64,000 nucleotides of DNA from a virus (lineage: Duplodnaviria; Heunggongvirae; Uroviricota; Caudoviricetes): IMG/VR virus record IMGVR_UViG_3300024268_000023; one strand, given 5' to 3'. The notes beneath the pieces were generated by a model, which worked only from the letters and a program-made list of their open reading frames with translations, had not been told where the DNA came from and did no database searches. Both the position numbers and the translations under genes were made by a program. Position 1 is the stretch's first letter, and the number at the start of each line of letters is the position of its first letter. Shown piece by piece: positions 3,105-15,136 of the stretch.

Positions 3105-4529
3105 GTGATGCATATTCCAAAATTTATTGAGCCAGATCCCCAACTTGCAATGGCTAAAATGGATGAAACGAAGTTTCATGTAGTTGAACCGCAGGCAACA
3201 AGTGAAACAAAGTTTCACGTAGTTGATAGCATTATGGGTAGTGGCAAAACGCAAGGAGCTATTAGCTATATCAATGCTCACCCTTTCAATAAATTTATAG
3301 TAATTACTCCATATTTAACTGAAATAAAAAGATTCGTTGAAGGATGCCCGGTTCATAAGTTCCGAGAGCCCGAACGTTGTGAAGAATTGAACCAAAATAA
3401 ATCAGATTCTTTTGAATCACTTTTAGATAAGAAGGAAAATATCGTCACTACGCATGTTTTGTTTTTTATGCAGTCGGATAACATTTACGAAAAATATAGG
3501 GGGTATAAACTTATCATCGATGAAACTCCAGAGCAAGCTTTTCGTAATGTTGATAATCTTACAGAAGCAGAAACAAGGTTTTTATTCAACGAATTTATCT
3601 CTCTCGATGAAAATAAATATGCAATATGGAAAGAGACTGCTCCTCCAGTTGGAAGATTTGGAGATATTAAGGAACTGGCCGATGCTGGGAGGCTTCGGGG
3701 GTATATAGCTGAAGATACCGACAAAATATCTAAGTGTCTTTTTGAGGTTTTTCCATCTGCCGTATTTGAAGAATTTGAAGAAGTAGTCTTACTGACATAT
3801 TTATTGCATGGGCAAATTTTTAGTGCTTACTTGGAAACAGAAAAAATCAACTACGATTACTGGTATGTAAAAAGCCAAGATGGAAAATATGAGTTTACAG
3901 AAGATTTTCAGCCAGACTCTGTGTATTTGTATAAAGATTTAATTAATATATACGGAGTAACAGAAAAAGGAAACGATAAACTTAATCGTATCGGCGATGG
4001 GCGATATGCTTTGAGCAAGTCTTGGTACAACGAAGCAAAGGAAGAAACATTTAATATTCTTTCGAACAACCTCATTAATTATTTCAAAAACATAACGTTT
4101 TCCAAAAGCGAAGACAGACTCTGGACAACCTTTCTGTCTTATGAGGGGGTAGCGGCAAAGAATAGGTTTCGAAAAAACTTTATTACCTGCAATCAGCGTG
4201 CAACTAACAACTATCGGAAGTGTAGCAACCTTGCGTACTTAACAAACAGATTTATGTCTCCATCTTATTCTATTATGTTTTCAAGATATGGTGTGTCAGT
4301 GGATAATGAGGCTTTTGCACTGGCGGAAATGTTACAGTGGATTTGGAGATCGGCAATTCGCGATGACAAAAGTATAAACATATATATTCCAAGCGAAAGA
4401 ATGAGAAATCTACTTATTGGTTGGCTTGCATTTGTGGCTCGAGATGAATGCCCAGAAAATGCTACATCAGCAAATATTTATGAGTGGCTAAAAACAATGG
4501 AAGCAAAAAGGCTTCCATTGAAAAAATAA
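3105..4529 (+). CDS. SF2 (DEAD/DEAH-like) helicase-family protein; true start may be slightly downstream
   Basis: Walker A DSIMGSGKT, Walker B LIIDE, C-terminal MLQWIWRSAIR; short internal duplication ETKFHVV x2. Confidence 0.75.
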   Translation: MMHIPKFIEPDPQLAMAKMDETKFHVVEPQATSETKFHVVDSIMGSGKTQGAISYINAHPFNKFIVITPYLTEIKRFVEGCPVHKFREPERCEELNQNKSDSFESLLDKKENIVTTHVLFFMQSDNIYEKYRGYKLIIDETPEQAFRNVDNLTEAETRFLFNEFISLDENKYAIWKETAPPVGRFGDIKELADAGRLRGYIAEDTDKISKCLFEVFPSAVFEEFEEVVLLTYLLHGQIFSAYLETEKINYDYWYVKSQDGKYEFTEDFQPDSVYLYKDLINIYGVTEKGNDKLNRIGDGRYALSKSWYNEAKEETFNILSNNLINYFKNITFSKSEDRLWTTFLSYEGVAAKNRFRKNFITCNQRATNNYRKCSNLAYLTNRFMSPSYSIMFSRYGVSVDNEAFALAEMLQWIWRSAIRDDKSINIYIPSERMRNLLIGWLAFVARDECPENATSANIYEWLKTMEAKRLPLKK

Positions 4530-5362: not shown

Positions 5363-8322
5363 ACGCCACTTTCGGTTCAATACTCGCTCTACGCCCTTGA
5401 CACGTCAGCGTTTTTTACGGACGAAGAGCTTGTTATGGAAAGAAAGTTGCAACGGGTAAGAAACATTTTGGGGAAAAGGAAGGGCAGTTACGCTCAGCCT
5501 GATAACAAAACATCCCCTGCAATTAGAATGAAACATATTCATAAGCTCAACGAACTTGCGGTTATGTATAAGTCGGAGCTTAAAAGAATAATTGAGGAAA
5601 ATACACATCTTGTTCGCACGGTGCGACAAGAAAAGTTGACCAGAAGTAACGTGGTCGCCGTTTTTGATTCAACCCTAACGAGAGCATTGGAGATGCAGTC
5701 CGATGTGGTAAATGAGCAATTGGTCATTGTAAAGGTTTATTACTTCGGTGTGGCTGAATCAATGGTTAAAAACGGATTTATGATGAATGGTCAAAGATAT
5801 AAATTTTTCTCGGCAAGCGCCGGGCAAATAAGAACAAAGAAATTTGTAGCTATTAGGGAGGAAGACTACGAGAGAATATATATGAAGCTCTCCTGCGGGC
5901 TTGACATCCCGACTATAAATGAGGCCGGAGGTGTTAACACGAATAAGTACCTTGCGTACCAGGCGCTGTGCTCAAGTGCTACGGACGTCTGGGAAGACTT
6001 TGATATAGATAAGAGTATTGTTGTTGATGATTTTGAAACGACTGTAAGAGGGCTTGTAGACTTTATAGATGAAAAGGATTATTCCATTCAAAGAAAAGAA
6101 ATGGATGTTCCTATTCCGCATACAGATGGCTGCGGAATGATTCTCCCTAAGTTAAGTAAAAAGAATTTCATGGTACGAGCACCATGGATAAAAGGACTTT
6201 TAGCAGTTTTCCCGTTTGATAAATTCATCAGAGAAGAACGAAGAAACGGCAATAAAGACTGCGGATTTATCAGAGATATATATGGGCAGATACATGATGT
6301 GCTCGGCGAAGATATCCAGGTTATTTTTACAAAATCCCAAATAAAGCTATGGAAATATTATGAGAACTGGGATCAATACAAAGAATATTTTAAAAAGTAT
6401 GACTGCGAAGCCTGTAAATGCAATGAAGAGGAAGACTTTATAGAAGACGCTCGATTTAACTACCAGATGCTTCAAACTCTTACAAGCATTACCGATGAAG
6501 AACTTACAAAAATTGCAGAAAGAACCAATAAAACTTTGAGAGATGTTTCTTCCGATAGAGAAACAATGCTCAGAGTTTTCGGAGCAACGAAAACCAATTG
6601 TCATAAAACCTATTTCCAAAAAGCCTTACTTATGTACCCAGAGCTTTTGCAAGACCCTTATTGCAGAGAAACACTCAGAGATTTGAAAAACAGCCTTGAA
6701 AAATTTGGGAAGGCCGGGAGACTTGAAATTGATGGGAAATATCTTTTCTTGATACCAGATTTGTATGCAGCCTGTGAATATTGGTTTAAAGGAATTGAGA
6801 AGCCAGAGGGGCTTCTTAAAAATGGAGAAGTGTATTGCTCCGCTTATAAAAATAAAAAAGAACTTAACTGTTTAAGATCGCCGCACCTTTATCGTGAACA
6901 CTGTGTAAGAACCAATGTTGCTGATGAACACGTTGAAGCGAAGCGGTGGTTCTTGACGAACGGTATTTATACAAGCACTCACGATATGATATCCAAGGTG
7001 CTCCAATTCGATGAACAACATCGTCGCGCTCAGTGGAAACGCTGAGATGAAAACTTCGTGAACCTGGAAATCCAGGGTGTCGGTTATGGCCGGCTAACGG
7101 GGAACCGAGAGGAATCCCGTGCTAAGCGTAAAATAAAAATATCGCCTTTTGGAGGCGATAAAAATTGGACAATAATTAGAGAAAAATAACGATATTTTTA
7201 TTTTACGAAAGTATAACGACTATCGAAAGGGTAGCGGTAAAACCACGAGCTTTGCCGCGAGTAACTGAGTAGAGTAGCTTTTCGGTGAAACTCCGAAAGG
7301 CGAAGCGCGAAGCACCTAAACCTGCAAGGGCATGGTGATGATATAGTCTGCCCCGCGATAGCGGGACGGTTGACGGAGATAAAAGCTTAGTTGTCGCTGA
7401 TCCTACCTTGATAGAAGTAGCAAAGCGTGACTGCGAAGGAATAGTGCCTCTTTATTACAATATGGCAAAAGCTCCTGCCAGAGAAATAACTCCAGATGCT
7501 TTATATGAAGGAATGATAACAGCTTACACTTCCGGAAATATAGGGGCGGTAAGCAACAAAATAACAAAAATTTGGAATCTGCCGGAACCAGATTTAGATG
7601 CTATCAAACAACTTTGCTGTTTAAACAACTTTACTATAGATGCTGCAAAAACTCTTTATAAACCTTTGCCTCCAGACGACATTGCGGATCGCCTGAACGA
7701 GCTTACCAAAAATAAGCTTCCACATTTCTTTATATATGCAAAGGGCAAAAGAGAGTCGCAGGTAATGCCTGTGGGCAACGGATGCGTTGACAGGCTTGAA
7801 CATATCATTGAACACCGAAAATTTAACTTTCACCAAAAGCAACTTGGATATTTCGATTATCGTATGTTGATGGATAACGGGGATCTTGAATTAACCCCAG
7901 AGGACAACGTTCTGATAAAAGCTTATTATGATTTATCTTCTACGATAAATGGTCGAATCGTAGTAGATGAAAACGGCGGGGCCAATTACGATAGAGTATT
8001 CGGGGAATTCAGACAGGCCCTACTTGATATAGACCCGGACATCAACCATCTTGTTGATGTACTGGTAAAACAGACTTTTTGTGTAAAACGAAGCAAACAC
8101 AAGACTGCATTATGGCAGTGCTTCGGAGAAGAAATCTATCAAAATCTTTGCCGTAACATTCCAGAGAATACTATCATGTGTGAATGTTGCGGAAAGAGAA
8201 TTATTAAGACTGCTCGAAATCAAGTTAGATGCGAAGAGTGCGCTAAAGGTTTTAACAAAAAATGGTGTGCAGAGTATAGAGAAAGAAAAAGAGCAAATGA
8301 AGGTTCCGCGACAGTTTCTTAA
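5363..8322 (+). CDS. yonO: YonO-like single-subunit (two-barrel) RNA polymerase; exons 5363-7012 and 7369-8322, about 867 aa after splicing
   Basis: SAGQIRTKK, DGCGM, RSPHL motifs; splicing rebuilds QFDVDGDKSLV (DxDGD); frame is open from 5357 and includes DTSAFFTDEE upstream of the first ATG (5435). Confidence 0.9.
7013..7368 (+). ncRNA. Group I self-splicing intron (IA-like, no ORF), 356 nt
   Basis: Exon ends in U and intron ends in G; P1 CGAU|GA with UCGUCG gives a U.G pair at the splice site; P10 CAAC/GUUG; P2 CUCAGUG-GAAA-CGCUGAG; P4 ACGGG/UCCCGU; P7 GACUA (7218-22)/UAGUC (7344-48); P9 CCCGC-GAUA-GCGGG. Confidence 0.92.
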
Positions 8323-12291: not shown

Positions 12292-13407
12292 ATGCCAAGA
12301 GGTAAAAAAGCGTACACGCCGTCGGATTCCAAAGTGGATGTTAACTCCCGCGACTTATGTACGCAGCTCAATAATTATCAAAAAGAAATAGGCGGAGAAC
12401 CGTACTTTGGTATCTACCGATGTTCACATTGTGGACATTGGTATATAAGCCAAGCAAATTTTTACAAAACTCCGTCTCCTTTATACGAGAAAAACAATGG
12501 TTACCTTACTGTTTGCAAGAGCTGTGCTCAAAATCTTTTCGATGAGCACTGTAAACAAACAGATAATGATTTACATAAAGCTATGCGACTCACTTGTCAT
12601 GAGTTGGATTGGCCTTATGATGAAGAGAACTTTGATATTGTTGCAGAAAAGACAAGAATCAGAGGACATCTCGTAGAAAGTTATGCTGCCATTATTGGCA
12701 ATGCAAAATACACAATTGGTCTTTCTTATTCTGATACGATGAAAAAGGAAATGGAAGAAACCGAAGCCGTTCCGTTCTTCGTTGATGTTCCGTCTGTTTC
12801 TCCTGAGGTGTTATGTGAGAACTCAGAAGATGCAGAACAGGTAGCAAAACGGAAAAAGGCGGCAAGGTTCTTTGGCAGAAGATTCACTGAAGATCAACTT
12901 GATTATCTTATTGACGAGTATGCTGAATGGGAAGAAGAATATAAACCGAAAAAGAAAGCAGACAAAGACCTTTATAAAAATATATGCCTTATGGATTTGA
13001 AAATTTATGAAGGTACTGCCACCGAGAAGGATTTTAAGGTTTATCAGGATTTAATGGAAAGCGCTGGTGCGAAACCTAAACAGCAGGCTGAAAATGCACT
13101 TGCTGAGCAAAACACTCTTGGTACTCTTATTAAATTTTGGGAAGACAATGATCCAATTCCAGAACCGGCTCCCGAATGGAAAGACGTTGATGGAATTTGG
13201 AAGTATTTTACAACATGGATTTTAGGACACCTTTGTGAAATGTTTGGGTTCGACAATGAATATGCAGAACTTTATCGAGAGGAAAAGGCAAAGTATTCAG
13301 TTGAACCTCCGGAAAATGATGAAGAGGACATGGGTTCTGAAATTGCAAGTGTAATATTTAAAGCGAAGAACTCCTCCGATGATGAGGAGGTGGTGCCGGA
13401 TGACTGA
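12292..13407 (+). CDS. Zn-ribbon protein immediately upstream of TerL (possible small terminase/packaging factor)
   Basis: CSHC and CKSC motifs; its stop overlaps the TerL start region; position only. Confidence 0.5.
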   Translation: MPRGKKAYTPSDSKVDVNSRDLCTQLNNYQKEIGGEPYFGIYRCSHCGHWYISQANFYKTPSPLYEKNNGYLTVCKSCAQNLFDEHCKQTDNDLHKAMRLTCHELDWPYDEENFDIVAEKTRIRGHLVESYAAIIGNAKYTIGLSYSDTMKKEMEETEAVPFFVDVPSVSPEVLCENSEDAEQVAKRKKAARFFGRRFTEDQLDYLIDEYAEWEEEYKPKKKADKDLYKNICLMDLKIYEGTATEKDFKVYQDLMESAGAKPKQQAENALAEQNTLGTLIKFWEDNDPIPEPAPEWKDVDGIWKYFTTWILGHLCEMFGFDNEYAELYREEKAKYSVEPPENDEEDMGSEIASVIFKAKNSSDDEEVVPDD

Positions 13408-15136
13408 TTCAGCGCAGATTAATTTTACTATGTCGAGGGTTGCTCTCTGGGTCTCTTTCTACAGAGCAAATCCTCATCGTTTTGCGAAAGATTATCTTGG
13501 TCTGGACTTGAAGATGTTTCAGCAGATAATTCTTTATCTTTTCTTTCATGTAGAAAATGCGATGTATTTGGCATCCCGATAGCGAGGGCAAGGAAAATCC
13601 TGGTTGCTTGCAGTATTCTGTTGTGTAAAAGCTATATTGTGGCCCGGGACTGAAATAATTATTGCGTCTAAAACAAGAAAACAGGCAAATGAAATTCTTG
13701 AAAAAATAATGACAACCATAGGAACAAAGTCTCCAAACTTGATGCTTGAAATCGACATGAAACACACAAAGGTCGGAGGGCAAGATAGCTATATTATGTT
13801 CCGCAACGGTTCAAAGATCACCGTTGCTACAGCAAACGAGAATGCTCGACATTTCAGGGCTCACGTTTTAATTATCGATGAGTATAGAATGACTCCTCTT
13901 GATATTATCAATGATGTTCTTAAAAGATTCTTGACTGCTTCTCGTCAGCCAGGTTTTCTTACTAAGCCTAAGTATAAGGGCAGAAAAGATTTACTCGAAC
14001 CGATGCAGCAGCTTTATGCCAGCTCGTGTTGGTATACATCTCATTGGTCTTATAACTTGGCAAGAGACTATATGGCAAACATGCTTGATCCAAAGAGAAA
14101 CTATTTTATTTGTAGCTTGCCATATCAGATTGCTATTAAGGAAGATTTGCTCAAAGAGTCCACCGTTAGAAATGATATGAGTGAGAGCACGTTTAACATG
14201 CTGACGTTCCAAATGGAGATGGAAGCTCTTTGGTGGAACGAAGGAGAGCTTGGACTTTATCATTTTGACGAGATTGATGCTACTAGAAAAATTCTTTATC
14301 CATGGCATAGGGATTCTTTGGCTACAAAGCTTGGGCCAGCAGGCAAACATCTTTCAATTCCTGCTAAATTAAAAGGCGAAAAAAGATTGCTTAGTGCTGA
14401 CTTAGCTGTTGCTCCAGGTCAACGAAATGACGCAACATCTATTTTTATAACACAATTGCAACCGGGAACTGCGGGGAAATACGCAAGGAATGTGGTTTAT
14501 ACAGAGGCATGGGAAGGATGGCATACATCTGACCAAGCACTGACAATTAGAAAACTCTTTGCAGAATATGACTGCGATTATATTGTCATCGACTGCAAAG
14601 GTGTCGGCTACGGTATTGTCGACCTTTTAATGCGTGATCAGTACGACCCCCAAACAGGGCTTACATACCCGGCTCTTGCAAGTTGTAATGACTTGATGGC
14701 TGACCGTAATCAACCTGGAGCTGCAAAAGTTTTGTGGCCGGTTGCTGGTTCACCTAATTTTAACTCTGAGTGCGCATTAGCACTTAGAGAAAGTTTCCGC
14801 AATGGCAGTATGAGATTACTGATATCGGATTATGATTGTGACGATGAATTGGTTAAGCTTCAAGGTTTTTCTAAACTTGATCCGGATATTCAAACGCAGA
14901 TAAGGTTGCCATATTTACAAACATCCTTACTCATAAATGAGCTTGTTAAACTCGAGTATGAAGCAAAGGGGAATGTTGTAAAAATAAAAGAACGTTCAGG
15001 TATGAGAAAGGATAGATATTCAAGTTTATCCTATAACAATTATGTTGCGAATCAACTTGAGCGTAAACTATCTAAAAAATCTACTTTTGCGGGCTATGCC
15101 CCAATGTTTAATTTTAGAAAACCCACTTTAGGGTAA
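13400..15136 (+). CDS. Terminase large subunit with an in-frame TAG at 13580-13582 inside Walker A
   Basis: ATG 13400 after GAGGAGG; ...MYLASR*RGQGKS...; both ORF-track pieces are in one frame; Walker B LIIDE; nuclease LSADLA and KDRYSS. Confidence 0.9.

Follow-up and report, generated by a model that had tools for sequence, protein, structure and literature searches.

How a phage makes the large subunit of its terminase (TerL) from a gene whose Walker A motif is broken by a stop codon is the question raised by one locus in a 64,000-nucleotide (nt) stretch of DNA, here called the window, from the Caudoviricetes record IMGVR_UViG_3300024268_000023 of IMG/VR. By direct reading, positions 13571-13600 of the window are GCA TCC CGA TAG CGA GGG CAA GGA AAA TCC, with an in-frame TAG (13580-13582) inside the Walker A loop of TerL (13400-15136). 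A 60-codon open reading frame (ORF) that begins at ATG 13400, overlapping the stop codon of a YonG-like gene upstream, precedes the TAG, and 517 in-frame codons follow it as far as the stop at 15134-15136. The most probable answer, held at a probability of roughly 0.55 on the pattern of sequence conservation, is a programmed +6 stop-hop between the identical CGA (arginine) codons that flank the stop. The locus is a recoding site that is conserved and lies in an essential gene; its parts are as follows, dN/dS being the ratio of nonsynonymous to synonymous substitution rates and carriers being the sequences that share the 6-nt insert.

13384-13390, plus strand: Shine-Dalgarno sequence GAGGAGG, 9 nt before the TerL start, by direct reading.
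13400-13579, plus strand: TerL segment 1, codons 1-60 (MTDS...MYLASR), of which the last is the proposed take-off codon.
13571-13590, plus strand: 20-nt core GCATCCCGATAGCGAGGGCA, unchanged in four full-length carriers, where the gene has no longer invariant run.
13577-13579, plus strand: CGA (Arg), the proposed take-off codon, in the ribosomal P site while the stop is in the A site; CGA in 9/9 carriers.
13580-13582, plus strand: in-frame stop TAG (TAA in L098), a slow-to-decode A-site codon.
13583-13585, plus strand: CGA (Arg), the proposed landing codon, the same as the take-off codon; CGA in 9/9 carriers.
13586-13600, plus strand: GGG CAA GGA AAA TCC, encoding GQGKS, the remainder of Walker A, with GGG as the would-be resume codon; GGG in 9/9 carriers.
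13583-15136, plus strand: TerL segment 2, the remaining ATPase domain and the nuclease domain; dN/dS about 0.03.

The identity of the interrupted gene is well marked. The read-through translation matches terminase ATPase families, the match beginning exactly at the interrupted motif, ASR[*R]GQGKS (Pfam Terminase_6N, 24.2 bits against a cut-off of 22; TerL_ATPase from residue 68-69), and, across 95% of its length, it shares 42% identity with YonF of SPbeta, with matches to other SPbeta-like terminases as well. The codons of the DEYR Walker B motif are conserved in the four full-length carriers. A structural model of P0002, an uninterrupted relative that is 85% identical, places the motif in the loop between a strand (53-58) and a helix (64-78), which in the model is the location of a textbook P-loop. 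Foldseek searches with this model found T4 gp17 (E-value 4e-12), Sf6 gp2, HK97, the D6E TerL and isolated nuclease domains; the predicted structure has the two-domain terminase fold, an ATPase joined to an RNase H-like nuclease. A sequence search of the PDB found no match, nor did a nucleotide search among cultured phages. As with yonF of SPbeta, TerL of the carriers follows a YonG_N/YonG_C gene and precedes a YonD_N gene; its neighbourhood consists of a Phage_integrase-family gene, YonG, an ORF of 500-520 amino acids and a YonD-like gene. The genome contig that contains the window (C1, 127,746 bp) has a single copy of TerL; the phage is a roughly 128-kb SPbeta-like gut phage, and the interrupted gene is its only TerL.

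The 6-nt insert is present in nine assemblies (the window, L001, L002, L015, L016, L097, L098, L099 and L100), which comprise eight distinct sequences of about four lineages, 79-85% identical locally. Logan contigs from four runs of four studies (animal faeces and gut, sheep) show no indel or substitution in 13571-13593, the runs having been examined as contigs, in which minor variants would be invisible. A protein search returned two clusters of shortened proteins (about 500 amino acids; 94% and 86% identity), the DNA of both of which has the identical TCC CGA TAG CGA GGG, together with a full-length relative at 85% identity. The 60-amino-acid N-terminal ORF has been called on about 49 contigs, the largest reaching 170 kb. 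Since the insert occurs in independent assemblies and contigs, it is no assembly artefact. In the nearest uninterrupted relative the motif reads TCC AGA GGA CAA GGT AAG (ASRGQGKS) and is exactly 6 nt shorter. The carriers form one clade (ultrafast bootstrap 96, SH-like approximate likelihood ratio test 94), sister to the uninterrupted P0002; thus the insert arose once and was retained while the clade diversified. A search for related loci with a single TerL protein as the query found nothing; with an alignment it recovered 80 loci, of which 63 are intact with measurable spacing, 16 were not matched by the anchor pattern and one has an intron-like insertion, and none of the 80 has a short insert at the motif. 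Degenerate NNN-stop-NNN scans of viral, metagenome and genome contig collections gave chance matches only, none of them in TerL, and no independent matched-codon variant.

Most of what the first-pass annotation had read from the letters of the window stands. The sequence and its ORFs confirm CGA-TAG-CGA in Walker A with both halves of TerL in one frame; the canonical motif that it gave as ASRGQGK(S/T) appears in homologs as ASRG-x-GK[ST]; the uninterrupted relative bears out its count of exactly two extra codons; and the 6 nt are, as it said, not a tandem duplication. It had also named, as outcomes that would refute it, data that lack the 6 nt and an allele unique to the window. Neither came about: the 6 nt are retained in independent contigs, and a whole clade has this allele in common.

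Several records near this locus call for separate mention. P0181 was considered as a natural TAG>CAG variant and rejected, the gene call having used TAG=Q while the underlying DNA has TAG. A public pipeline used TAG=Q to derive ASRQRGQGKS from L097:50-421 (ENA ERZ2227771, a 600-nt contig), of which the DNA has TAG; the predicted protein of L097 departs from all others after ...EKIM, and the contig may be a chimeric, low-coverage one or may contain another insertion. In KT429160, an SPbeta-like Staphylococcus phage, TerL is annotated as two coding sequences of 233 and 363 amino acids (L101:2050-2160), with a change of frame near residue 233, of which a sequencing error, a frameshift or a further recoding site may be the cause; it was rejected as a parallel case, the break near residue 233 being unrelated to the Walker A site. 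TerL of Mammaliicoccus phage phi36 is intact.

The gene has been maintained by selection on both sides of the stop. Synonymous differences between carriers affect 54-78% of sites (dS from 0.8 to saturated), and dN/dS between them stays within 0.007-0.08 for each of three parts of the gene: the 60 codons that lead up to the stop, the first 20 beyond it, and the C-terminal part. Because dN/dS is low on both sides of the stop despite near-saturated synonymous sites, TerL is evidently functional and not a pseudogene. The GQGKS codons come after the stop but ahead of any candidate restart codon, and all changes in them are synonymous (CAA/CAG, GGA/GGT/GGC, TCC/TCT/TCA). Purifying selection thus acts ahead of any restart codon, and ribosomes must therefore pass the stop in frame 0.

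Constraint at the nucleotide level was examined in the alignment of carriers. Among conserved residues encoded by codon families of at least fourfold degeneracy, 44 of 227 (19%) have the identical codon in the four full-length carriers; the codons flanking the stop, GCA TCC CGA and CGA GGG, are identical in 5/5 cases (naive p ~3e-4 for a pre-specified site). No invariant run in the 1737-nt gene is longer, in those four carriers, than the 20-nt GCATCCCGATAGCGAGGGCA. Among all nine carriers the core has only two changes, TCC>TCT (L097, a low-coverage contig) and TAG>TAA (L098), and CGA-stop-CGA-GGG is fixed in 9/9. In 28 conserved Arg columns, only the two CGA codons flanking the stop stay CGA: the four other columns of TerL that contain CGA all vary, and the other invariant Arg codons are AGA, except for one CGT. 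CGA accounts for 10.8% of the Arg codons of the genome versus 43.8% for AGA, and relatives encode the motif Arg with AGA, AGG, CGT or other Arg codons. The stop is TAG in 8/9 carriers and TAA in 1/9, and is never a sense codon in them or in the contigs of the four runs; on this alignment the conserved feature is evidently the stop function itself. The length of the loop from the YRANP anchor to GxGK[ST] is constant in 118/118 full-length homologs and in 63/63 measurable IMG/VR loci, and no insertion in the Walker A loop was found among these 181 intact homologs.

In the proposed mechanism, ribosomes would translate codons 1-60 of TerL until decoding stalls with peptidyl-tRNA-Arg on the CGA at 13577-13579 in the P site and the stop at 13580-13582 in the A site. 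In a fraction of ribosomes, the peptidyl-tRNA would release this CGA, the mRNA would shift by 6 nt and the same anticodon would re-pair at the identical CGA at 13583-13585; GGG would be read next, and synthesis would resume to give the canonical Walker A motif ASRGQGKS with zero inserted residues. The other ribosomes would terminate and release the 60-amino-acid N-terminal peptide. We infer such a hop, and with it some efficiency of hopping, from several features. It is favoured because the flanking CGA codons are identical and specifically conserved though CGA is a minor codon, because the loop length is invariant in homologs and only a hop gives the canonical length, because no sense-codon variant occurs despite saturated synonymous change, and because one lineage (L098) has UAA. 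As in known bypassing, the take-off and landing codons are identical and the stop lies directly 3' of the take-off codon. The bypass put forward in the first-pass annotation is therefore the best-supported reading, unproven as it is and with readthrough as the main rival.

Some considerations weigh against a hop. All carriers derive from one insertion event, so the family offers no independent covariation of take-off and landing codons. Conserved nucleotides beside the stop would be expected for a readthrough context also, and readthrough keeps R-G-Q-G-K-S intact, so that a loop two residues longer might work. No known stimulator was found, neither an upstream Shine-Dalgarno-like element nor a nascent-peptide feature special to the carriers. 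The hairpin UCCCG-AUAG-CGAGGG, which the first-pass annotation had drawn around the stop, is not supported, being no more stable than shuffled sequences (-3.9 kcal/mol, z = -0.27), and folds of 46 and 101 nt are no better than shuffles. The synthetic stop-hops that Weiss made in 1987 were reportedly inefficient, at ~1% or less.

Leaky readthrough, in which a near-cognate tRNA (for example Gln, Tyr, Lys or Trp) would decode UAG or UAA to yield an active ASR-X-RGQGKS while the stop keeps TerL low, is possible rather than probable. It shares with the hop the continuous frame across a single stop and the selection on the downstream coding sequence; the RGQGKS string survives the insertion with the core P-loop residues retained, the tRNA-Gln(UUG) of the phage is a possible near-cognate reader, and the conserved nucleotides flanking the stop would fit a readthrough context. 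A C following the stop makes a weak termination context in E. coli, and phages are well known to use readthrough naturally, as for A1 of Qbeta. However, it leaves unexplained why the stop is flanked by CGA on either side in 9/9 carriers, although CGA is conserved nowhere else in TerL. The readthrough product would be two residues longer, whereas 181/181 intact homologs keep one loop length, an observation that speaks against tolerance of an insertion. A single TAG>CAG change would make the same protein constitutively and is never seen, despite saturated synonymous divergence; the L098 lineage uses UAA, the least leaky bacterial stop; and the phage has no suppressor tRNA. That UAG should be read as an amino acid through recoding, a phage suppressor tRNA or pyrrolysine is very improbable. 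TAG is indeed the rarest stop of the whole genome C1 (8 of 135 crudely called genes, versus 79 TAA and 48 TGA), and one public pipeline called the L097 gene with TAG=Q, but TAG still terminates those eight genes, and the 12 tRNAs of the phage, all encoded outside the window, include none with a CUA anticodon. Genome-wide recoding was rejected, TerL being the only ORF in the whole window that gains length if TAG is taken as sense, and the TAA of L098, which an amber-specific mechanism could not read, rules out amber-specific suppression.

A split TerL, in which the 60-amino-acid peptide and a product of roughly 500 amino acids started at TTG 13604 or later would act jointly or separately, is scarcely credible. 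Gene callers do annotate two ORFs, and in the window AAGGA lies 9 nt before TTG 13604. Against this, no start codon occurs between the stop and GKS, so that neither piece would have the Walker A lysine, as the first-pass annotation had seen for the TTG product, and GQGKS is nevertheless under purifying selection; moreover, neither the TTG nor the Shine-Dalgarno-like AAGGA is conserved (CTG in run X12, TTA in the L002 lineage, CTT in L098, and GGT and GGC variants). The X12 contig differs from the window at 13604 by T>C (TTG>CTG, synonymous for Leu), which removes the sole nearby restart codon in that strain. Rescue or decay at the DNA level, by which a minority of genomes with the 6 nt deleted would supply TerL, or the gene would be a recent pseudogene or an assembly error, is unlikely. 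Slippage between the direct repeats CGA...CGA could remove exactly the 6 nt, and contigs do not show minor variants, but a revertant would be expected to sweep unless the insert were advantageous, and there is no second TerL in the genome. Decay is opposed by the fixation of the insert across lineages with dS of at least 0.8 and dN/dS of at most 0.08 in both halves, and error by its presence in nine assemblies and in contigs of four independent studies with no indel. Everything other than a hop or readthrough makes up, all together, a minor share of the probability.

A tRNA gene cluster of the same phage (C1:105183-107857, minus strand) includes a gene (C1:106304-106373) with a 6-nt anticodon loop, AGAGAG, and a 4-bp GC stem, to which ARAGORN assigns no anticodon; it cannot pair with UAG or CGA, and no link to TerL is seen. 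Positions 1-255 of the window are not part of C1 (window position 256 corresponds to C1:1), are rich in G and C, contain GCGGC repeats and seem to come from another record.

Relatives of the carriers have much larger insertions at the same motif. A search with the 60-amino-acid N-terminal piece found short TerL N-termini ending in ...ASRG in at least 11 diverse lineages, on whose contigs 310-1150 nt lie between ASRG and QGK[ST], two of them with LAGLIDADG ORFs. LAGLIDADG proteins are encoded at L009:4274-5080 and L011:4298-5101. In four relatives, exon 1 closes with ...AGR GGT and a TAA comes next; the 3' junction is readable in L009 and L013, and there the element ends in G directly before CAA GGN AAR; tblastn alignments of three relatives put the junction between G61 and Q62. 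A similar insertion at the motif is found in L086 of IMG/VR. The boundaries of these elements are group-I-like, and they are termed intron-like by their boundary features and LAGLIDADG ORFs only: searches of Rfam (RF00028) at gathering and permissive thresholds did not classify the TerL elements of relatives as group I introns. Two further features were noted in L009, at 3277-3604 and 5636-6676. Its TerL has a second intervening sequence, at Walker B (P0002 residues 157/158), with a DUF723 ORF, so that both ATPase motifs of its TerL are insertion targets. Its YonG gene is also split, by a group I intron that Rfam recognises (77.6 bits).

The 6 nt of the window are located 3-6 nt upstream of the insertion point in relatives, inside the stretch that a LAGLIDADG enzyme would be expected to recognise. 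Conceivably, the insert was kept because the 6 nt split the DNA target of a homing endonuclease, with the hop as the price. The combined proposal, that this is a natural, minimal 6-nt in-frame stop-hop retained as anti-homing immunity in the smallest possible form, is a tentative one and more doubtful than the hop itself. No homing-endonuclease gene is found beside TerL in the carriers, LAGLIDADG ORFs occurring only inside the elements of other lineages, and this, like the failure of Rfam to classify those elements, counts against the immunity idea. The first-pass annotation had missed that the motif is an insertion hotspot for intron-like elements bearing homing genes, which offers a different reason for the insert from the "metering" of TerL that it proposed, a role that is not supported.

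Natural bypassing is known mainly from T4 gene 60 and its homologs, the 'byps' of yeast mitochondria and the candidate in the Hau3 terminase. Full-text literature searches found no paper on bypass at a terminase Walker A motif or on this phage group. The TerL site is a clean natural test case, consisting of nine bases in an essential single-copy gene, with a clade of carriers and a nearest relative free of the insert. It also matters for annotation: gene callers split TerL into a 60-amino-acid piece and a 'hypothetical protein' of roughly 500 amino acids on dozens of contigs, and one pipeline resorted to TAG=Q, so that such phages may be scored as terminase-less or as recoded. If the reading is true, the site would be a natural example of the in-frame class of stop-hops, which had been demonstrated with synthetic constructs but had no known natural occurrences according to a 2016 review by Atkins (PMC5009743). 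If the link to homing is true, the idea developed for gene 60 and MobA, that a coding gap protects from a selfish nuclease, would extend to a second and far simpler system.

The precedents named in the first-pass annotation, namely synthetic stop-hops and T4 gene 60 (PMC5009743) and the Hau3 terminase (PMC10732093), check out and bear on the TerL site in different ways. Phage large-terminase genes are known to harbour group I introns whose first codon is a stop (PMC2504315); as there, conserved terminase codons are targeted, and the elements of relatives start with a stop between the Gly and Gln codons, but the 6 nt of the window are far too short to splice. Gene 60 of T4, like the TerL site, has a take-off codon, UAG and a matched landing codon, with the insert in a conserved essential gene (PMC5009743). 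Its coding gap shields the T4 genome from MobA nicking (bioRxiv 10.1101/2022.08.31.505936), the insert disrupting the target of a homing endonuclease, and the same role is proposed for the TerL insert. The gap of gene 60, however, is 50 nt long, is bypassed efficiently with a take-off stem-loop, a nascent-peptide signal and a Shine-Dalgarno-like element, and adjoins mobA, whereas the TerL gap is 6 nt, with no significant structure and no adjacent endonuclease gene.

Another precedent is the terminase of Streptomyces phage Hau3, where bypass of 10-nt inserts is supported by mass spectrometry (PMC10732093). Hau3, StrepC.1 and an S. catenulae prophage have short non-coding inserts (7-10 nt) in the phage large terminase, as does the window, and in Hau3, as here, bypass is inferred since the protein alignment allows no extra residues at the junction (PMC10732093). 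The Hau3 inserts are led by UUA, a rare sense codon, and change the reading frame; a response to the availability of bldA tRNA has been suggested for them, and a stem-loop and a Shine-Dalgarno sequence were proposed as stimulators (PMC10732093). The TerL insert is in frame and has a stop as its A-site codon, in a terminase family and a host group unrelated to those of Hau3. CGA-UAG-CGA shares its geometry with the synthetic stop-hops of E. coli (Weiss, Dunn, Atkins and Gesteland 1987; reviewed in PMC5009743), in which matched codons flank a stop: there, as proposed here, 9 nt specify one amino acid through a +6 hop with no long-range signals (PMC5009743). The codon pair of the TerL site (Arg CGA) differs from theirs, and its host may differ as well. 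Unlike those engineered reporters of low efficiency, the TerL site is natural, lies in an essential gene and is conserved throughout a clade under purifying selection.

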